From a virus (Duplodnaviria > Heunggongvirae > Uroviricota > Caudoviricetes): 15,611 nt of DNA. The stretch is taken from the IMG/VR virus record IMGVR_UViG_3300029733_000039, positions 1 to 15,611 of that record; one strand, given 5' to 3'. This document shows positions 2,401 through 15,595 of the stretch, piece by piece (the first letter of the stretch is position 1; every line of letters starts with the position of its first letter). The position numbers and the translations under genes are program-made. The notes under the pieces were generated by a model, which saw nothing but the letters and a program-made list of their open reading frames with translations, was not told the DNA's origin and did not search any database.

Positions 2401-2763
2401 TTAATGACCTGCTGCGCGGAGTTTTCCGTCAGGTTCACCGGCAAGAGTCAGTAATTGTCCCTGGTCTTCCTGCAGAATAGTCAGGCGACCACCTCGATTG
2501 ACATACATCGGCGTTTCGGTGGTGTCTTCTTCGGAGATTTTCCCGCGGTTAGTCGGGCGAACATATGAGAGTTTGTGTTTGATTTTCACACGGTTCTCAT
2601 CAAACGGTTCGATGTCCAGATTGACCGAGACTTTACCTTTGTTTTTCGTGTTCATCACACCGGAAGCGACTTCACTGAGAACTGCGCCGAGTTTGGTTTC
2701 AAATACGCCGCCGTCCAGTTCTACGATAAATACCTGCACATCAGTACTGCGTACGCTAGCCAT
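2401..2763 (-). CDS. yfdP: YfdP-like hypothetical protein, 120 aa
   Basis: The ORF track gives 2401..2949; the preferred start is the ATG at 2763..2761 (MASVRSTDVQ...), which has a strong GAGGAG RBS. This gives 120 aa, the length of K-12 YfdP. The upstream 62-codon extension has no RBS and overlaps structured leader sequence. Confidence 0.55.
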   Translation of the reverse strand: MASVRSTDVQVFIVELDGGVFETKLGAVLSEVASGVMNTKNKGKVSVNLDIEPFDENRVKIKHKLSYVRPTNRGKISEEDTTETPMYVNRGGRLTILQEDQGQLLTLAGEPDGKLRAAGH

Positions 2764-2900
2764 TTTGCTGCTCCTCATCATACCGACCCTGCAAGGTCGG
2801 TTGGTTTCTCCACAAAACAGAGAAGAACACCTGCGGTGACAGCCGCCCGGATGGATTGGGTTATGAGCCCGTCGTCCGGTGATGCTCTTCTCTGTTTTGT

Positions 2901-2962
2901 AAAAAGAGCGGTACCAGCCGGAAGCAAGTGTACAAACTGGTACCGCCAAAGCAGTGGCTGTT
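2901..2962 (-). ncRNA. dicF: DicF-like small RNA with intrinsic terminator
   Basis: The minus-strand sequence UUUGGCGGUACCAGUUU matches the DicF core as I recall it (UUUGGCGGUAUCAGUUU) at 16 of 17 positions. It is followed by an 11-bp terminator stem (5' arm 2947..2937, 3' arm 2917..2907, including one G-U pair) with a 19-nt loop and a UCUUUUU tract (2907..2901). It lies in the early-left leader downstream of the repressor gene, as dicF does in Qin. The 5' end is not determinable from sequence. Confidence 0.5.
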
Positions 2963-3439
2963 GTGGTGCCGGTGCTGATCTCCGGCTTGCGGTTATTTCA
3001 GACTCTCACGGGCGTTTGATTGCCCCGCCGAACAGCTCTTTTCCGCAATAGCCGCAATGTCTTTCGCGCATCAGCCTGCGCATTCACCACAACGCTGAGA
3101 GCATTGCCGGTGTCCGAATCGAACGGACCTTTTCCCTGCCCAACCCTCCCATCTGAATGGGACTGTCTGGAATTGAACCAGCACTTATGCCTTGCTCGTC
3201 AATGCTCTCATCGTTGCGTCCTGGTCTCTTCCCAGGCGTCAAACCGAATCGCCACGCTGGTTAGGCGTCTTATCAGCATCATCATTGACTTGCACATTCC
3301 GGCTACCTGGTTTGTTTGCCCGAGCAAGGAGTGGATTGTCCCCTTTAACGTCCCCAGACCGCTAACGACGCATGTGCCATACGCCGTGTTACAACCAAAT
3401 TTTGTTTAATCTTGCCTGTGGCATGTTTCTTTTAGATAC

Positions 3440-3467
3440 ATTATGTATCTCAAGGGTACATTGTCAA
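3440..3467 (-). promoter_or_regulatory. Candidate PL early-left promoter with operator half-site
   Basis: On the minus strand: TTGACA (complement of 3462..3467), a 16-nt spacer, then CATAAT (complement of 3440..3445). A GGGTACA motif shared with the OR operator lies in the spacer. Inference only. Confidence 0.35.
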
Positions 3468-3470
3468 GTA

Positions 3471-3494
3471 TAAAAAAACCTGCCGAAGCAGGTT
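3471..3494 (-). terminator. Rho-independent terminator after the repressor gene
   Basis: Minus-strand hairpin AACCUGC-UUCG-GCAGGUU followed by a U7 tract, 12 nt downstream of the CI stop codon. Confidence 0.6.
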
Positions 3495-3505
3495 ATAAAT
3501 ATTGA

Positions 3506-4180
3506 TTAGGCCTTTATTTTGTATCTTCTTGGTTTTCCTGAGAAAATTACTGTACCAATTATAGAGCAATTACCGTTAATCTTAATGTAAGGCTCAGGCC
3601 AGTTTGGGTTTAATGCTTTGAGATAACGCTGTGTTCCATCTTCTATCAATCGCTTGAAGGTGGTTTCGCCTGTATCGTGCATCAATGCAATAACGTCGTC
3701 ACCGTGGCAGGCAGGGACTTCGGGATCAACAAAAATCATGTCTCCCGGGCGGTACTCATCAATCATTGAATCACCAATCACCCGCAAGATATAAGTCATT
3801 TCGCCACAGGGTACAGGGCAGGGATAAGTTTCTGCTGTGCTCAAATCAACCTCAGAATAGCCAACTTCTTTCCATGCTCCGGCCTGTACCCATGATATGA
3901 CAGGGACTAACGTTATTTGTTTGTTAGTAATTGAAACATCAGGTTTTTTTGTGATGTTTGTTGTCTGGTGTTCTTGATCAAGCCATCCGACAGGCAGGTC
4001 GAAACATTTTTCGATGTGCCGTGCCATGCTGTCACCGATATTTTTAGTAGCACCATCTCCCATAAACCTGCTGGTCTGGGTTGGCTCGCGATCAATCATG
4101 GTGGCAAAGGAAGAATTCCCGCCAACACCATCTCTCAGTTTTCTGGCGTTAGACCGCCGGATGTCATGGACTGTTTTCAT
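3506..4180 (-). CDS. CI-like phage repressor with C-terminal S24 (LexA-type) autopeptidase domain
   Basis: 224-aa ORF divergent from the cro-like gene. The C-terminal half has the S24 Ser-Lys dyad signature (VIGDSM ... TFKRL). The N-terminal part is consistent with a DNA-binding domain. A terminator follows directly. Confidence 0.85.
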   Translation of the reverse strand: MKTVHDIRRSNARKLRDGVGGNSSFATMIDREPTQTSRFMGDGATKNIGDSMARHIEKCFDLPVGWLDQEHQTTNITKKPDVSITNKQITLVPVISWVQAGAWKEVGYSEVDLSTAETYPCPVPCGEMTYILRVIGDSMIDEYRPGDMIFVDPEVPACHGDDVIALMHDTGETTFKRLIEDGTQRYLKALNPNWPEPYIKINGNCSIIGTVIFSGKPRRYKIKA

Positions 4181-4502: not shown

Positions 4503-5072
4503 ATGAGGCTAACCGTGGGTAAGCATCACTGGAAAGTAGAAAAACAGCCTGAGTGGTACGTGAAAGCTGTCAGAAAAACTATCGCGGCGTTGCCGGGGGG
4601 TTACGCTGAAGCTGCTGAGTGGCTGGATGTAACAGAGAACGCTTTATTCAACCGCCTTCGTGCAGATGGCGATCAGATTTTCCCGCTGGGATGGGCAATG
4701 ATTTTACAGCGCGCGGCTGGCACTCACTACATTGCGGATGCTGTCGCACAGTCTGCTGGTGGGGTGTTTGTATCGCTTCCTGAAATTGAGGAAGTAGAGA
4801 ATGCCGATATAAACCAGCGCCTGCTGGAAGTCATCGAACAGATCGGGAGTTACTCAAAGCAGATTCGTTCGGCAATCGAAGATGGGGTAGTGGAGCCACA
4901 CGAGCAGACAGCAATTAATGATGAGTTGTATCTGTCAATTTCGAAGCTCCAGGAGCATGCAGCACTGGTCTACAAAATCTTTTGCGCTCCAGAAAAGAGT
5001 GACGCCCGCGAGTGTGCAGCTCCGGGCGTCGTGGCGTCGATTGCTTCTGGTTGTGGAGAAACTAACGCATGA
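4503..5072 (+). CDS. YdaT-like / CII-position regulatory protein, 189 aa
   Basis: First gene downstream of cro in the PR operon. Family resemblance to YdaT (structurally CII-like) is from memory. An alternative GTG start at 4515 has a GAGG RBS. The stop overlaps the next ATG (ATGA). Confidence 0.5.
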   Translation: MRLTVGKHHWKVEKQPEWYVKAVRKTIAALPGGYAEAAEWLDVTENALFNRLRADGDQIFPLGWAMILQRAAGTHYIADAVAQSAGGVFVSLPEIEEVENADINQRLLEVIEQIGSYSKQIRSAIEDGVVEPHEQTAINDELYLSISKLQEHAALVYKIFCAPEKSDARECAAPGVVASIASGCGETNA

Positions 5073-6865
5073 ATAGTTTAACGGCAAATAACCGTTTGTC
5101 GCAACAGCTGGTGGTCAGCGTCGCTGAACACCTGTTGTTACGGCATGAATGCAGATTACCAAATCACCTGGCTGTAAGTAACCACAGAGAACTTTACCTG
5201 ACTGTGGGGGGCGAGTTGTGCAGGAACTTAACCGCTGGTTTCGTGACGGAAGAGGGCTTTATGTCCATGTTATTCGTTGGGAGCCAGAAACACAGCGCGT
5301 TATCTATCTTCGCAAAGACTACCCGCATGAGTGCTTTAGTCCTTTGTGGAAATTCAGGCGTGATTTTGTTGAGTGTGAAGGACCACCAGCATATTGATTC
5401 TGCCATTCCGGGACGTTACACTGTTCAGGCACCTTATAAAGCGGGTGCCGGGATTGGCGTCCTGAAATTGTCAACGGCGATGTATGACGCGCCAGCGTCT
5501 TTTTTATCGTCCGCATTTGCTCACATCCAGATAATGGTGGGCTGGGCGGGGGCACCGAAAGGTGCGCCGGTCTCCGTTGACGCCGGTTACGCCAACCCCG
5601 TCCAGTTCACCACCAGTGAAATTGGCGTTTCCGGTGGTGGAAGTTTTTCACTGTCAACGGAGGCTGCCATCATGGCTACGATCCCAGCCCTCACTCAACC
5701 TGAAATCACCATTGACAACGGCCAGGCCGTTACCACTTCTTTGGCTGTTGCCAACTCCTTCTCCAAGCGTCACGACGATGTGCTGAAAAAGATCCGCACT
5801 CTGGATTGTTCCCCTGAGTTTTGTGCCCGCAATTTTGCGGAGACATCGATTTCGGTAAATCAACCGAACGGTGGTACACGCAAGCTCCCTTGCTATCAAA
5901 TCACACGAGACGGTTTTGCGTTTCTTGCTATGGGTTTCACGGGTAAACGTGCTGCCCGGTTCAAAGAGGCATACATCAATGCCTTTAACCAGATGGAGAA
6001 ACGCTGCATTACGGCGTTATCCCTTTTTGACTATCTCCGCTTGTTGCGCCTTGCTGGTGTTCCGGGTTATATTTCTCGCGTTGCTGTAAATCCAGCAACC
6101 GGGTTTAGCAGCCCGGAACACATCACAGCGCACAACCGCGCCTGCGGTTTTTTTGTGTGCAATGCCCGGTCACATCTGAATTATGGTGGCCTGGGTAGGG
6201 GAGCCGAAAGGCTCGCCGGGTTCTGTGATGACCGGTCTGCTAACCCTGCTCAGGTTACCACCAGTTGTTTAGCAGCAGCTTGTGGTGATAAGTCAAAACT
6301 CATCACAGGGGCTGTCGTTATGACTACCATCCCAACCCTCGCTCAACCTGAACTTTGTGTTATTGATGGCAAAGTCGTTACTTCTTCGCTGGCTGTTGCC
6401 GATTATTTCCATAAACCCCACAAAGACGTACTGGCAAAAATTTCTCGTCTGGATTGTTCCGTCGAATTTACCGAGCGAAATTTCTCGCTCAGCAAATACA
6501 CCGATGTAACAGGGCGTAAGTTGCCGTGTTATCACATCACTAAAAATGGCTTCGCGTTCCTAGCTATGAGTTTTACAGGCAAGCGAGCGGCTCGTTTTAA
6601 AGAGGTGTACATAAACGCCTTTGACCAGATGGAAAATCAACTTTCAAATCCTTCTAGGTTGAATGACGTCGCACATAACGCCAGCGTTCTCTATTCCTAC
6701 ATTTCATCAATTCATCAGGTCTGGCTGCAGCAGCTTTATCCCATGTTGGCAAAAGCCGAATCCCCGCTGGCTGTAAGTCTGTATGACCGCATCAACGACG
6801 CGGCGCTACTGGCCAGTCTCATAAATTTGTCGCTGAATCCTTCAGAGGTAAGGGGGCGCAAATGA
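5069..6865 (+). CDS. 598-codon ORF with two tandem Rha (phage regulatory protein / antirepressor-like) domains; gene model uncertain
   Basis: Single open frame 5069..6865. Two Rha-type domains (TTSLAVA ... LPCY.ITRDGFAFLAM.FTGKRAARFKE.YINAF.QME) begin at in-frame ATGs 5672 and 6320, each with its own RBS (GGAGG at 5659..5663; AGGGG at 6306..6310). The first 200 codons have no recognisable domain. Internal nucleotide-level elements (see findings) suggest the real products may be shorter, for example 5672..6865 or 6320..6865. Confidence 0.5.
   Translation: MNSLTANNRLSQQLVVSVAEHLLLRHECRLPNHLAVSNHRELYLTVGGELCRNLTAGFVTEEGFMSMLFVGSQKHSALSIFAKTTRMSALVLCGNSGVILLSVKDHQHIDSAIPGRYTVQAPYKAGAGIGVLKLSTAMYDAPASFLSSAFAHIQIMVGWAGAPKGAPVSVDAGYANPVQFTTSEIGVSGGGSFSLSTEAAIMATIPALTQPEITIDNGQAVTTSLAVANSFSKRHDDVLKKIRTLDCSPEFCARNFAETSISVNQPNGGTRKLPCYQITRDGFAFLAMGFTGKRAARFKEAYINAFNQMEKRCITALSLFDYLRLLRLAGVPGYISRVAVNPATGFSSPEHITAHNRACGFFVCNARSHLNYGGLGRGAERLAGFCDDRSANPAQVTTSCLAAACGDKSKLITGAVVMTTIPTLAQPELCVIDGKVVTSSLAVADYFHKPHKDVLAKISRLDCSVEFTERNFSLSKYTDVTGRKLPCYHITKNGFAFLAMSFTGKRAARFKEVYINAFDQMENQLSNPSRLNDVAHNASVLYSYISSIHQVWLQQLYPMLAKAESPLAVSLYDRINDAALLASLINLSLNPSEVRGRK
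5486..5615 (+). repeat. Copy 1 of a conserved structured module (terminator-like hairpin plus multi-stem element) upstream of Rha domain 1
   Basis: Hairpin GACGC-GCCA-GCGTC plus T6 (5486..5505). Then outer stem GGTGG (5536..5540) / CCACC (5610..5614), a 10-bp stem 5542..5551 / 5596..5605, a GAAA-loop hairpin 5552..5565, and a CCGG/CCGG hairpin with 12-nt loop 5567..5586. Confidence 0.6.
6134..6263 (+). repeat. Copy 2 of the same structured module, upstream of Rha domain 2
   Basis: Hairpin AACCGC-GCCT-GCGGTT plus T-run (6134..6154). Outer stem GGTGG (6185..6189) / CCACC (6258..6262), stem 6191..6200 / 6244..6253, GAAA-loop hairpin 6201..6214, CCGG/CCGG hairpin 6216..6235. Several base pairs differ from copy 1 by compensatory changes. 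Copy 2 is 1 nt shorter, so the 5' part is read in a different frame from copy 1. Confidence 0.6.
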
Positions 6866-12220: not shown

Positions 12221-12237
12221 TTTTGTGGAGAAAGTTG

Positions 12238-12630
12238 ATGCGTGATATTCAGATGGTTCTTGAACGCTGGGGGGCATGGGCGGCAAGTGGTAACACCGGG
12301 GTGGACTATTCTCCGATAGCTGCTGGATTTAAAGGCCTTTTACCATCCACCGCTAAACCTCGCCCGGCCTGCAGCGATGATGACGGCCTTATCATCGAAA
12401 ACTGCCTTACGCGCCTGAAGAAGAAAAAACCGGACGAGTATTCGCTGCTGGTAGCTCATTATCTGCTGCGCATATCAAAAAGGCAGATTGCCAGAACAAG
12501 AAAGAAGAGCGAAAAGGCAATACGAATTGAGATGCAGATTGCTGAAGGATTTATTGACGGATGTCTGTCGATGCTGGGTGTAAGGCTGGAGATGGACGAC
12601 TGGCTGCCCAAAAAAGTAAAAAATGATTAG
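12238..12630 (+). CDS. Late-gene antiterminator Q (phage 21/82-type, QuuD-like)
   Basis: The N-terminus MRDIQMVLERWGAWAA... matches the characteristic start of Q antiterminators of this type as recalled. ATG 12238 has a GGAG RBS. The track TTG start at 12223 is less likely. A terminator follows. Confidence 0.75.
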   Translation: MRDIQMVLERWGAWAASGNTGVDYSPIAAGFKGLLPSTAKPRPACSDDDGLIIENCLTRLKKKKPDEYSLLVAHYLLRISKRQIARTRKKSEKAIRIEMQIAEGFIDGCLSMLGVRLEMDDWLPKKVKND

Positions 12631-13040: not shown

Positions 13041-13358
13041 TTTGTGGTAAATGGGCGGCTGGTGGGTGTGGTGGTTGTTGCTTCCCCGTTGCTGAAAAAG
13101 AAAGCATCAGGCGATTAGCAGGGTATCAGTTACCCGTTGAAATTTTTAAATACCTCACAATTCAGGCGGTTGACTGTTGTCTGGTTTGCGGGGAGTTTGT
13201 TAAAAGAAACTGGCATGGTGAATCCCCCTGTGCGGAGGGGCAATCAGCAACTGGTGTTTTGTCACCGACCCTTATCCTTTCTGTGCGGGTTCAGGTGCTG
13301 ATACTGAACTCACCGGGAGGCACCCGGCACCATGCAATGGCACATAGCGCCACTCTCC

Positions 13359-13385
13359 AGCCCCTCTCCGGAGGGGCTTTCTTAT
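13359..13385 (+). terminator. Plus-strand intrinsic terminator in the non-coding cargo region
   Basis: AGCCCCTC-TCCG-GAGGGGCT followed by TTCTTAT. Confidence 0.5.
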
Positions 13386-13389
13386 GGAC

Positions 13390-13612: not shown

Positions 13613-15595
13613 ATGGCATTTAAACACTATGACGTGGTCAGGGCGGCGTCGCCGTCAGACCTTGCGGAGCGACTGACTCAAAAACTGAAGGAGGGGTGGC
13701 AGCCATTTGGCAGTCCGGTGGCCATCACGCCCTATACCCTGATGCAGGCCATTGCGGCGGAAGGTGATGTCACCACACCGGTGGTGGTGCAACCGTCGGG
13801 TGATGGTGGCGCTGTTATCAGCACCACCAGCGAACCGGAATATTACTTTGTCATTGCGCTGGCCGGGCAGTCCAACTCGATGTCTTTTGGCGAGGGGCTG
13901 CCGCTGCCGGATACGTATGATCGTCCTGACCCGCGTATTAAGCAACTGGCGCGTCGCAGCACGGTGACACCGGGCGGTGCGGCCTGTGCATATAACGACA
14001 TTATTCCTGCAGACCATTGTCTGCATGATGTGCAGGACGTGAGTAATCTGAATCACCCGAAAGCAGACCTCAATAAAGGGCAGTATGGCTGTGTGGGGCA
14101 TGCCCTGCATGTGGCCAAAAAACTGCTGCCGTTTATGCCTGCCCGTGCGGGGATCCTTCTTGTCCCGTGTGGACGTGGCGATTCGGGATTTACTGCGGGA
14201 GCAGAGGGCGCGTTTAATGAGGCGTCGGGTGCGACAGCGGGCTCTTCCCTGTGGGGGGGGGATAAACCGTTGTATCGTGACCTGGTCAGCAGAACGCGTG
14301 CAGCCCTGAAGAAAAATCCGAAAAACGTGCTGTTGTCGGTGATCTGGATGCAGGGGGAAAAAGATGTCAGTTCGGGGAGACATGCAGAGCACAATGCACT
14401 TTTTCTTGCCATGGTAAATAAATACCGTGCAGACCTGGCAGATATTGCAGACCAGTGTATTGGCGGGACAACGTCCGGCGTCCCGTGGATTTGCGGTGAC
14501 ACCACGTACGACTGGAAGGCGAAGTATGCAGTGCAGTATGAGGCGGTTTACGGAGGCTATAAAGGCAAGGCGGCGCAGAATATTCACTTTGTGCCGTTGA
14601 TGACGGATGAGCATGGTGCGAATGTGCCGACAAACGAGCCGTCAGAAGATCCGGACATTATCACGGCGGGATACTATGGTGCCGCGTCACGCAGTAATGG
14701 TAACTGGACGACAGCCGATCGTAAAACGCACTTCAGCTCCTGGGCGCGAAGAGGCATTGTTTCAGATCGGCTGGCAGGAGAGATACTGGTGCGAGCCGGG
14801 CGTTTGCTGCCGTTCCTGAGCGGGCAGTCTGCACCGCTGGCGACCACGCCAGCCTCCACGGGGGATGCACAGTCTGGCTCTGCGGGTCCGACGCAACAGC
14901 AGGGTGCAGGTACTTCTGCAGGCGGTCATACTGAAGCCGTAACAAGAATGGTGGCCGGATATGATGCGAACAGTGGCAGTGGTGTATGGACAGAGCAGCA
15001 GTGGAATGCGTCCGGTGGTAAAGGCACTGTGACGGATGACAGTGGCAGGAAGGCGCTGCGACTGGAAAAACAGCCGGGTAAACTGACCTCCTGGAAGATG
15101 TTCCGTACTGTTGCGGTGGAGGAGGCAAAAAATCTTCTCAGTAAGGGAGGTGAAATTGCCGTGCGGTTTAAGATCCCGGAGGGTGTCGAACTGGTTAACG
15201 GTCAGTTTGTCTTTGGTCTGTACTGGCCGGTGTCGCAGTGGGCGTCAGGCGCGACAGCAAACAGCATGCTGGCGTCCTTCTTCCTTCAGACGGATGCATC
15301 AAATCTGAATCTGATGTACCACAAGGGGGAGTCGAATGCGCAACTGGGCACATTTGGGGCATTTGACCATAACTGGCATACGGTTGTTTTCCGCTTTGCG
15401 GGAAATAACAGCGAAAAAGTGGTGCCGGTGATTGATGATGCAGAGCAGTCTGCGTTTGACCTGGTGATGTGGACAAATGATGGCTTTACAGCAGATACGC
15501 TGACGCTGACAGATATCACGGGGGCAAAAGCGACGTATCCGGTACTGCTTGATACGGTCACAGTCAAAGTTAACGAAAACCGGGAATCAGCATAA
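13613..15595 (+). CDS. nanS: Prophage sialate O-acetylesterase (NanS-p-like: DUF1737 N-terminal domain plus SASA/SGNH esterase domain)
   Basis: 660-aa ORF with a GGAGG RBS. The N-terminus MAFKHYDVV... and the GQSN active-site motif (ALAGQSNSM) are typical of the nanS-p genes found downstream of stx / Q in lambdoid prophages. The C-terminal roughly 200 aa is Gly/Thr/Ser-rich and looks like a carbohydrate-binding region. Confidence 0.75.
   Translation: MAFKHYDVVRAASPSDLAERLTQKLKEGWQPFGSPVAITPYTLMQAIAAEGDVTTPVVVQPSGDGGAVISTTSEPEYYFVIALAGQSNSMSFGEGLPLPDTYDRPDPRIKQLARRSTVTPGGAACAYNDIIPADHCLHDVQDVSNLNHPKADLNKGQYGCVGHALHVAKKLLPFMPARAGILLVPCGRGDSGFTAGAEGAFNEASGATAGSSLWGGDKPLYRDLVSRTRAALKKNPKNVLLSVIWMQGEKDVSSGRHAEHNALFLAMVNKYRADLADIADQCIGGTTSGVPWICGDTTYDWKAKYAVQYEAVYGGYKGKAAQNIHFVPLMTDEHGANVPTNEPSEDPDIITAGYYGAASRSNGNWTTADRKTHFSSWARRGIVSDRLAGEILVRAGRLLPFLSGQSAPLATTPASTGDAQSGSAGPTQQQGAGTSAGGHTEAVTRMVAGYDANSGSGVWTEQQWNASGGKGTVTDDSGRKALRLEKQPGKLTSWKMFRTVAVEEAKNLLSKGGEIAVRFKIPEGVELVNGQFVFGLYWPVSQWASGATANSMLASFFLQTDASNLNLMYHKGESNAQLGTFGAFDHNWHTVVFRFAGNNSEKVVPVIDDAEQSAFDLVMWTNDGFTADTLTLTDITGAKATYPVLLDTVTVKVNENRESA

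Follow-up and report, generated by a model that had tools for sequence, protein, structure and literature searches.

Organization of the early-left leader

The window, i.e. the whole stretch of 15,611 nucleotides of IMG/VR record IMGVR_UViG_3300029733_000039 that was analysed, is a lambdoid prophage of Escherichia coli, 99.9% identical to strain EC9682. On its minus strand, the gap between the repressor gene and yfdP (~3433 to 2764, ~670 nt) forms the untranslated leader of a PL-type operon under repressor control, as the promoter lies just past the repressor-gene terminator and over a palindrome. This leader is noncoding, occupies a conserved early-left position and holds five conserved folds (Table 1). 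It comprises a domain termed module A followed by two units of a long stem plus a clamp, as long-stem module 2 is followed by UUUGUGGAGAAAC, which by inspection seems to resemble the 5' start of the clamp; a terminator separates the two units, and the second clamp is cut short and merges into the 5' untranslated region (UTR) of yfdP. The clamp is a pseudoknotted three-way junction that is widespread in the leaders of early-left operons of prophages. Hetero-immune phages and unrelated ones carry every module in conserved form, compensatory changes included. With modest confidence, the whole may be read as a noncoding leader of exchangeable RNA folds, i.e. a processed noncoding-RNA array that also gates the transcription of yfdPQR.

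Judged from the PL-like promoter, transcription would start near 3433. The 17-bp palindrome, which lies in a region spanned by an imperfect inverted repeat (3423-3441/3443-3461), is a candidate operator, and the product of yfdP matches phrog_204. BLAST searches of E. coli genomes and phages found 2764-3406 conserved in the hetero-immune lambdoid phages mEp460, cdtI, Ayreon and 1720a-02 and also in Stx2a-, Stx2c- and Stx2k-converting phages; among E. coli strains, EC9682 and IAI39 carry this leader. It has a mosaic structure with sharp breaks between blocks at 2948/2959, 3103/3201 and 3406, and pieces of it occur in P1-type phage-plasmids beside tRNA genes and in epsilon15-like Salmonella phages (SPC32N-type) beside tRNA-Arg. 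In K-12 prophage CPS-53, the yfdO-yfdP intergenic region (locus L186, 7248-7604) retains only the last 35 nt before yfdP; the rest of that gap consists of GAYGG/TGACGG-type short repeats, the leader having been lost.

Table 1. Positions of the leader modules and of neighbouring features in the window
Feature	Position	Strand	Description
yfdR, yfdQ, yfdP	yfdP AUG 2763-2761	-	genes, followed beyond yfdP by an unannotated gap
yfdP ribosome-binding site	2761..2777	-	Shine-Dalgarno GAGGAG (2777-2772) and AUG (2763-2761); end of leader
Degenerate clamp 5' half and 6-bp hairpin	2775..2811	-	UUUGUGGAGAAAC and hairpin; runs into yfdP ribosome-binding site
Long-stem module 2	2806..2906	-	~22-25-bp stem centred on perfect 15-bp repeat
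DicF-sized segment	2901..2960	-	13-15-nt single-stranded tail, terminator hairpin 2947-2908, U-tract 2907-2901
Clamp	2961..3092	-	pseudoknotted three-way junction; covariation, covariance model R1
Long-stem module 1	3086..3220	-	18-bp closing stem (arms 3216-3197, 3109-3090) round a four-way junction
Module A	3218..3393	-	~175-nt leader RNA domain; homologues and RNAalifold
Palindrome (17 bp)	3434..3450	.	AGATACATTATGTATCT; overlaps -10 hexamer of PL-like promoter
PL-like sigma-70 promoter	3440..3467	-	TTGACA-16-CATAAT, 11/12 consensus matches
Repressor-gene terminator	3494-3477		PL-like promoter directly downstream
S24-peptidase (cI/LexA-type) repressor gene	3509-4180	-	same strand as yfdP, beyond the gap
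Cro-like, CII-like and Rha/Ash genes		+	
Antiterminator Q gene	12223-12627	+	further right
isrK/C4/c4-a1b1 elements	5429-5505, 5530-5617, 6067-6119, 6080-6154, 6179-6265	+	Rfam

Structure and distribution of the clamp

In the window, the clamp consists of the closing stem UUGUGGU/ACCACAA, the junction AAU, the hairpin GCGCA-GGCUGA-UGCGC, an 80-nt variable insert and the hairpin GCCGG-AGAUCAGCA-CCGGC. The two loops contain the complementary sequences GCUGA and UCAGC and are predicted to form a five-base-pair kissing pseudoknot; one copy pairs GACUGA with AUCAGUA, which is a compensatory pseudoknot change. The core, UGAAUGCGCAGGCUGAUGCGC ... GCCGGAGAUCAGCNCCGGCCA, is nearly invariant, while the closing-stem sequence is free: enterobacterial phages carry UUGUGGUG/CACCACAA, distant copies have other stems that nevertheless pair (GUGAUC/GAUCAC, AUGGA/UCCAU, GCAGA/UCUGC and GGGG/CCCC), and at least five consecutive closing pairs are found in 200 of 217 distinct clamps. 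The insert measures 9-165 nt (median 75) and is wholly different between copies.

In an alignment of 83 clamps, 97.4% of the cells are paired, a percentage biased upward by sequence patterns that fixed one half of the element during collection; 11 of the 23 pairs are changed on both sides, and none of 500 shuffles equals this result. A covariance model of the clamp, R1, which was trained on IMG/VR and phage copies only, scores 89-98 bits in the minus-strand sense vs 9-12 bits in the opposite one (89 bits for 2961-3092) and 57-81 bits on copies from distant taxa. G-U pairs are tolerated in the stems. The RNA sense is therefore the minus strand, as this tolerance and the strand bias of R1 agree with the co-orientation of clamps with tRNA and downstream genes described below.

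No family of Rfam 15 matches the clamp or the leader at the gathering score, and a cut-off of E ≤ 10 gave chance-level hits only. The core sequences were not encountered in the literature searched, nor was a description of the clamp found in that on P1 plp/upl, processive antitermination and structured RNA in prophage early operons. A hammerhead core (CUGAUG...GAAA) was considered and rejected, as the sequence after the hairpin is not conserved.

The clamp is present in at least 150 viral contigs overall, with at least 120 IMG/VR contigs for each search pattern (the most conserved 24 nt and the other end), and when one genome of each species was scanned, the 21-nt core turned up in at least 120 of the species. 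The hosts include Enterobacterales, Pseudomonas, Burkholderiales, Xanthomonadales, Halomonas, alpha-proteobacteria and several metagenome-assembled genomes assigned to other phyla. As the core is nearly invariant across such distant hosts, the clamp most probably either has a conserved partner to contact or needs none. Among the 120 species-level loci listed, an S24/cI-type repressor accompanies the clamp most often, being encoded ~1.9 kb upstream on its strand in 20 of them, and the recurrent downstream clusters of open reading frames (ORFs), i.e. RecT-like, YqaJ-type exonuclease, YfdQ and YfdR, are all co-directional with the clamp. Clamps likewise always have the orientation of adjoining tRNA genes. 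A terminator-like hairpin lies downstream of 36% of the 217 distinct clamps vs 16% at control positions.

In Halomonas olivaria AP019416 (locus L231, ~1139-1159), the 21-nt core is found in a spacer of a clustered regularly interspaced short palindromic repeat (CRISPR) array with GTTCCCCGCAGGCGCGGGGATGAACCG-type repeats, which means that the host acquired immunity against a clamp-bearing element and fits a phage origin. Some inserts resemble helix 11 of 16S rRNA (AGCUAGAUGGUGAGGUAAUGGCUCACCAUGGCGACGA; positions 237-283 of the Rfam small-subunit rRNA model, E=2.4e-5), as in loci L072 (4600-4646) and L090 (1953-1999) and also in L079, L092 and L132, and it is a possibility that the clamp scaffold displays decoys of host RNA.

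Relation of the clamp to antitermination signals and autonomous RNAs

The lambda N leader comprises nutL and an RNase III-processed stem between PL and N, and, like the present leader, it places structured RNA between PL and the gene that opens the early-left operon. The likeness is closest in prophages of Pantoea, Rahnella and Yersinia, where an N-like ORF (phrog_271) with an arginine-rich N-terminus begins 31-34 nt after the clamp and a genuine nutL, consisting of boxA (CGCUCUUUAACA or UGCUCUUUAACAA) and a boxB hairpin, lies upstream of it, so that the long-stemmed clamp between nutL and the N start takes the place of the RNase III-processed structure of lambda. Five such loci (L257, L252, L298, L262 and L245) show the order PL-like promoter, nutL, clamp with extended closing stem, Shine-Dalgarno sequence and N-like gene; a segment of nutL is repeated on the opposite strand in L257 (boxA) and L245 (boxB), presumably as nutR. 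However, lambda has no clamp according to R1, the prophage of the window has neither N nor nut, and RNase III cleavage at the present locus is something that we infer. The clamp itself is not a nut site, as N-bearing relatives carry a separate nutL upstream of it; neither an N-like ORF downstream nor a second, PR-side copy of the clamp was found in the window.

The put element of HK022 is likewise a cis-acting RNA just past PL in a lambdoid phage without N-type antitermination (PMC9378689), but it measures ~70 nt, has two stem-loops and comes as a putL/putR pair, whereas the leader has no PR-side copy. A pattern search and R1 revealed no similarity between the leader and HK022 22000-34000, the only R1 match in HK022 being weak (15.7 bits, E=0.085) and far from PL.

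Module A and/or the clamp might nonetheless be a factor-independent or Nus-dependent antitermination signal like HK022 put or rrn boxA, which would replace N and carry polymerase past the 2901 terminator and Rho sites into yfdPQR. There is indeed no N gene, yet a terminator stands ahead of the genes, and module A, like putL (PMC9378689), begins ~40 nt past the promoter. Set against the boxA consensus (CGCUCUUA / UGCUCUUUAACAA), a boxA-like UGCUCUCA is found at 3102-3095, and UGCUCUCA or UGCUCUUUCC immediately precedes most enterobacterial clamps. The elements also occur in long untranslated transcripts (the P1 tRNA/ban operon and the PR' leader), and if the core binds a conserved machine such as RNA polymerase, its invariance from host to host would make sense. 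On the other hand, the boxA-like strand is paired in a stem, whose two strands have both been replaced in locus L104, and the Pseudomonas copies lack the motif; the PR operon has no second copy, unlike put and nut, and the early region of HK022 is dissimilar in sequence. N-bearing relatives keep the clamp despite their own nutL, and the clamps of P1 lie downstream of the dicF-like terminator. This antitermination role is unlikely.

About as unlikely is an autonomous clamp, either a self-cleaving ribozyme splitting polycistronic noncoding transcripts into units or a riboswitch-like three-way junction whose kissing loops would serve to control the adjacent terminator or ribosome-binding site. 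An invariant UGAAUGCGCAGGCUGAUGCGC and GCCGGAGAUCAGCNCCGGCCA with a free closing stem and an insert of 9-165 nt is a pattern typical of ribozymes and aptamers, and the clamp stands between RNA units (tRNAs, long-stem modules), directly before terminators or 31-34 nt before starts. Its topology resembles the junctions of purine riboswitches or hammerheads with loop-loop contacts. Against this, no ribozyme or riboswitch family of Rfam gives a match, the junction strands are very short, the hypervariable strand between the hairpins is unusual for a ligand pocket, and inspection revealed no alternative terminator/antiterminator pairing.

The DicF-type terminator segment

The terminator between the two units has the arms GCGGUACCAG / CUGGUACCGC (2946-2937 / 2917-2908), a 19-nt loop and the tract UCUUUUU (2907-2901). 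The first-pass annotation had placed a DicF-like sequence with terminator at 2901..2962, of which the terminator and a short similarity to DicF stand, but membership of the DicF family does not. Local alignment with K-12 dicF gives 19 of 21 nt identical with one gap (score 30 vs 14 ± 2 for shuffles, maximum 24). The common stretch, UUUGGCGGUA(C/U)CAGUUU(G)UAC with the core UUUGGCGGUAYCAGUUU, forms the 5' arm of the terminator hairpin and is limited to DicF nucleotides 14-33. The 5' target-pairing sequence of DicF, UUUCUGGUGACG, is not conserved here, nor is its 3' half and loop region; nucleotides 1-13 and 34-53 are what we take to be its target-pairing regions. Folded alone, the segment and DicF share one layout, with a 15-nt tail, a hairpin starting from GGCGGUA and a U-tail (58 and 62 nt), and 2901-2960 also shows the Rho-independent hairpin and the location in a prophage early operon that characterize DicF. 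The DicF model (RF00039), however, finds no match at the gathering score in the window or at E ≤ 10 with permissive filters in 2600-3600. As this model fails and only the 5' arm of the hairpin is shared, 2901-2960 is a terminator module of the DicF type that is only distantly related to DicF and lies outside its family. The motif (C/U)UUGGCGGUACCAG of this hairpin recurs downstream of clamps in loci L113, L116 and L007 (3186-3230), where the sequence upstream of the clamps is unrelated, so the terminator hairpin itself is a mobile module.

A true DicF homologue at 2901-2962, processed from the early-left transcript and repressing ftsZ and other DicF targets, is improbable. The 21-nt match, the same tail, hairpin and U-tail at a similar size, and the homology to the Qin dicF-dicB region and to the P1 operon with its 'dicF-like region' speak for it, whereas the silence of the DicF model and the loss of nucleotides 1-13 and 34-53 speak against it. 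The predicted duplex with the ftsZ start region is no stronger than that of shuffles (RNAduplex, -32.0 kcal/mol vs -33.3 ± 4.4), but this crude test has low power and hardly discriminates, as DicF itself pairs with ftsZ only ~1.4 standard deviations better than its own shuffles.

Counterparts in Qin, in the P1 ban operon and beside Q

The resemblance to the Qin dicF-type arrangement noted at first sight holds, and the leader has an evolutionary link with dicF-type loci, as the dicF-dicB spacer contains a diverged clamp (R1 29.8 bits, E=2.6e-5). This copy (locus L006, 2456-2581, plus strand) reads UUGUGAUG...GGUGAAUGCGGCUGAGCGC...CCUGGAGGCACCAGG...CAUCACAA and carries no RefSeq annotation. Both the Qin operon (dicA-ydfABC-dicF-dicB, with DicF as RF00039) and the present one have noncoding RNA, with a clamp beside the dicF-type element, ahead of the first protein genes of a repressor-controlled early operon, and the 21 nt and the layout of 15-nt tail, hairpin and U-tail are common to both. 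They differ in that the clamp follows dicF in Qin but precedes the terminator here, that dicB lies downstream there and yfdPQR here, and that the seed regions and the hairpin loop are different.

According to its GenBank record, phage P1 has the C1-controlled promoters P1ban/P2ban (Op72), followed by a 'dicF-like region', tRNA-Asn, tRNA-Thr, the clamp array, tciABC, trnI, module A and ban. As in the window, repressor-controlled promoters thus precede a long untranslated RNA, which holds three tRNAs in P1. Module A of P1 is 79-80% identical to the copy in the window, a dicF-type terminator region is present, and one of the four long-stem-plus-clamp units is 96% identical to 2959-3094. As the C1-controlled ban operon contains the same modules, the early RNA of P1 is of the kind seen here, under repressor control and for the most part untranslated. 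In contrast to the window, P1 has four units and genuine tRNA genes, the dicF-like part is more like the Qin dicF precursor than like the hairpin of the window, and the old annotation covers the clamp array with the ORFs plp and upl in antisense. In that array (AF234172; L185, 1973-2542; L008, 2288-3218), plp and upl are antisense to four covarying units co-oriented with the tRNAs, and PGAP calls no gene at all in this stretch; they are probably not real ORFs.

A further counterpart is STnc100 (RF02076), whose model has a single match in the window (13184-13389, plus strand, 143 bits), between Q and the gene of a NanS-p-type sialate esterase (13613-15592), which would be the position of the PR' leader (PR'-to-tR'). 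The STnc100 model does not match the clamp at 2961-3092, but it matches clamp-array members of P1 and IMG/VR below threshold (E=7e-5 for P1 to 0.012), and R1 in turn matches the STnc100 core at 13213-13335 (20.3 bits, E=0.006). With these reciprocal matches, the clamp and STnc100 look like one structural superfamily. STnc100 and PasD share with the clamp the closing-stem end GGUG...CACC, the AAU junction, first and last hairpins that abut the closing stem and often a terminator, but STnc100 differs from the clamp in the hairpin sequences and in the kissing loops (GCUGA/UCAGC in the clamp) and has its place in the PR' rather than the PL leader, and the host range of the clamp is far wider. Both STnc100 and PasD, encoded beside Q, are abundant, Hfq-bound small RNAs (sRNAs) verified by northern blotting (10.64898/2026.05.13.724894).

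Elsewhere in the window, the PR operon contains isrK and C4 antisense RNA as a pair in two tandem copies together with a c4-a1b1 target site, all above the Rfam gathering score and located inside a 598-codon ORF (5069-6862) with Ash and Rha domains. This array looks like a duplicated antirepressor control module of the P1/P7 immI type.

Module A and the long-stem modules

Module A contains the hairpin CGGCGUAU-GGCAC-AUGCGUCG, the invariant segment pair GCACAU...AUGUGC and the terminal hairpin CCUGG-GAAGAGA-CCAGG. Its homologues lie between trnI and ban in P1 and behind promoter-like sequences in phages of the SPC32N type, and many IMG/VR contigs contain one as well. RNAalifold on 15 diverse copies gave 30 consensus pairs, five of them with compensatory changes, and preferred a long-range pairing of the two invariant segments over the covarying local hairpin read from the alignment, where a G-C to A-U switch is seen in six sequences for the first hairpin. 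The overall fold of module A, as modelled, is thus a provisional one.

Long-stem module 1 encloses T-loop hairpin 1, a variable middle hairpin, a conserved purine-rich strand and T-loop hairpin 2. The two tRNA T-arm-like motifs pointed out by the first-pass annotation, GUCCG-UUCGAUU-CGGAC (3117-3101) and CUGG-UUCAAUU-CCAG (3179-3165), are indeed present; both have the UUCRANY loop and are conserved and covarying (e.g. GUUCG/CGAAC and GGCAGG/CCUGCC), and hairpins of this type occur in 0.5% of random 90-nt segments from the fetched loci. The middle hairpin differs in nearly every relative yet always pairs. Among eight distinct sequences from phages of Escherichia, Salmonella, Klebsiella and Citrobacter (80-95% identity), a four-helix model has 94.5% of the cells paired, with eight pairs changed on both sides and none of 500 shuffles equal, whereas pairing in slid controls is 37-54%. 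The interior (3104-3200) has been swapped for ~40 nt in mEp460, with the stem arms retained, and in SPC32N the module is followed by a real tRNA-Arg.

This four-way-junction domain resembles tRNA and YrlA-type Y RNA in its two hairpins with 7-nt UUCRAUY loops on 4-6-bp stems and in its long acceptor-like closing stem, and it is associated with phage tRNA genes. It differs from tRNA in having no cloverleaf, anticodon loop or CCA end, and the tRNA, tmRNA and YrlA models give no match. The tRNA-like identity raised at the outset was therefore not borne out: ARAGORN finds no genes in the window, Rfam tRNA (RF00005) has no match at E ≤ 10 in 2600-3600, and the T-arm motifs are parts of the conserved four-way-junction domain rather than tRNAs.

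The perfect 15-bp inverted repeat reported earlier (2812-2826/2886-2900) is present and extends to 25 nt with 84% complementarity; an estimated ~2e-4 perfect 15-mer pairs would be expected by chance in 677 nt. The resulting long-stem module 2 encloses CCGG...GGG-CUCAUAA-CCC...CCGG and a variable GCGG/CCGC hairpin, and RNAalifold on ten relatives gave 34 consensus pairs, seven with compensatory changes. The inner motif GGG-CUCAUAA-CCC-AAUC (GGGYUCAUAUCCCAAUC) is also found in the long-stem loops of the P1 array. The 6-bp hairpin described ahead of the yfdP ribosome-binding site, CCGACC-UUGCAG-GGUCGG (2801-2782), is likewise there and covaries (GCGGY/GCCGC in relatives).

A more sceptical view would make the T-loop region the remnant of a decayed phage tRNA cluster and the whole leader non-functional recombination junk. 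Its blocks are common to the tRNA-containing regions of P1 and SPC32N, the leader is mosaic at the three boundaries given above, and CPS-53 of K-12 does without it. However, ARAGORN and the tRNA model are silent, identity is 80-95% in eight phages of four genera, and compensatory changes are seen in three helices; junk would not be expected to preserve its base pairs, and we give this view very little credence.

Noncoding nature of the leader

The scarcity of ORFs noticed earlier is real. On the minus strand from 2764 to 3505, the longest ORFs have 52, 49 and 39 codons, all with TTG starts, followed by GTG ORFs of 37 and 30 codons, and the single ATG ORF of the leader has 25 codons. The absence of an N-like gene also holds, as none of seven leader ORFs scanned at E ≤ 1 matches phrog_271, a profile that does pick up N-like genes behind clamps in other species. 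RefSeq/PGAP calls no gene between yfdP and the repressor gene in near-identical genomes.

The plus strand carries a 129-codon ORF with a TTG start (3020-3409), which is annotated in some phage records. Across 72 diverged alignments, its substitutions number 321/302/212 at codon positions 1/2/3, only six of 100 indel runs are in frame while 94 are frame-breaking, and its homologues contain stop codons. The 52-codon ORF of the minus strand shows no excess of third-position changes. This plus-strand ORF is matched by phrog_36251, and the 49-codon ORF (2781-2927, minus strand) by phrog_33599 (E=2.6e-18); as PHROG families are built from deposited ORF calls, such a match shows only that the annotation of the stretch is shared. 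The ORFs of both families overlie covarying RNA stems and have no coding signature, and spurious ORF calls may be the basis of both families. Also rejected was a conserved 25-codon peptide, MRRLMRERHCGYCGKELFGGAIKRP, that would start within the first clamp hairpin, as its frame is lost, the shortest clamp stops after six codons and compensatory stem changes alter its 'codons'. That the plus-strand ORF or the minus-strand ORFs of 49 and 52 codons encode small proteins, as annotation in some phage records and the two PHROG matches might imply, can practically be dismissed, since third positions are not enriched in substitutions, 94% of the indels shift the frame, homologues have stops, the starts are TTG, the ORFs cross covarying stems and the terminator, and PGAP calls none.

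Proposed working of the leader

In the favoured reading, i.e. a processed noncoding-RNA array that also gates yfdPQR, loss of the repressor would give PL transcripts that fold co-transcriptionally. A large share of them would end at terminator 2901 and yield a noncoding RNA of ~530 nt. The 18-25-bp stems would be cut, with RNase III as the obvious candidate, to leave compact stable RNAs, and the species released may include an RNA of clamp plus terminator or one of DicF size (~60 nt) that has an Hfq-type hairpin and U-tail. Transcripts reading through would carry long-stem module 2 as the 5' UTR of yfdPQR, so the leader would be both a noncoding-RNA locus and a gate ahead of the early-left genes. 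By analogy, DicF and lambda PreS/LPR1, an Hfq sRNA with the early-left terminator tL2a as its 3' end (10.1101/2024.10.31.621285), would be precedents for an sRNA made at a terminator in such an operon.

Several points weigh against this reading. Termination efficiency, RNase III cleavage and Hfq binding at the locus are all inferred; the terminator may be weak, as it has a 19-nt loop and only five U residues, and a consensus terminator scan did not list it. Only 8-15 distinct sequences stand behind module A and both long-stem modules, and the upward bias in clamp pairing has been mentioned. Furthermore, a role in scaffolding or processing needs no near-invariant clamp core across bacterial orders, which hints at a more specific activity; as a passive scaffold does not explain that core, there is room for antitermination, self-cleavage or sensing. 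The clamp may, as a tentative proposal, represent an undescribed class of functional RNA, autonomous or directed at a host machine, with members in early-left leaders of temperate phages all over the Proteobacteria. Such a class might act as a self-cleaving or processing element that uncouples nutL, tRNAs or sRNAs upstream from the mRNA downstream, or as a polymerase or ligand switch that sets early-left expression with or without N.

Implications for temperate-phage gene control

The lambda-type early-left leader is among the most studied regulatory regions in biology. Many lambdoid prophages, including Stx2a-, Stx2c-, Stx2k- and cdt-converting phages with the present leader, have no N. The analysis shows this leader to be filled with conserved folded RNAs, one of which, the clamp, is missing from Rfam and common to P1, the K-12 dicF locus and prophages of at least 120 species. 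If the clamp has a defined activity, be it processing, antitermination, sensing or an sRNA scaffold, it would be a new element in the model of temperate-phage gene control, would explain the location of the DicF, STnc100 and PasD sRNA genes, and would correct the ORF annotations that have been laid over RNAs (P1 plp/upl, phrog_36251 and phrog_33599).

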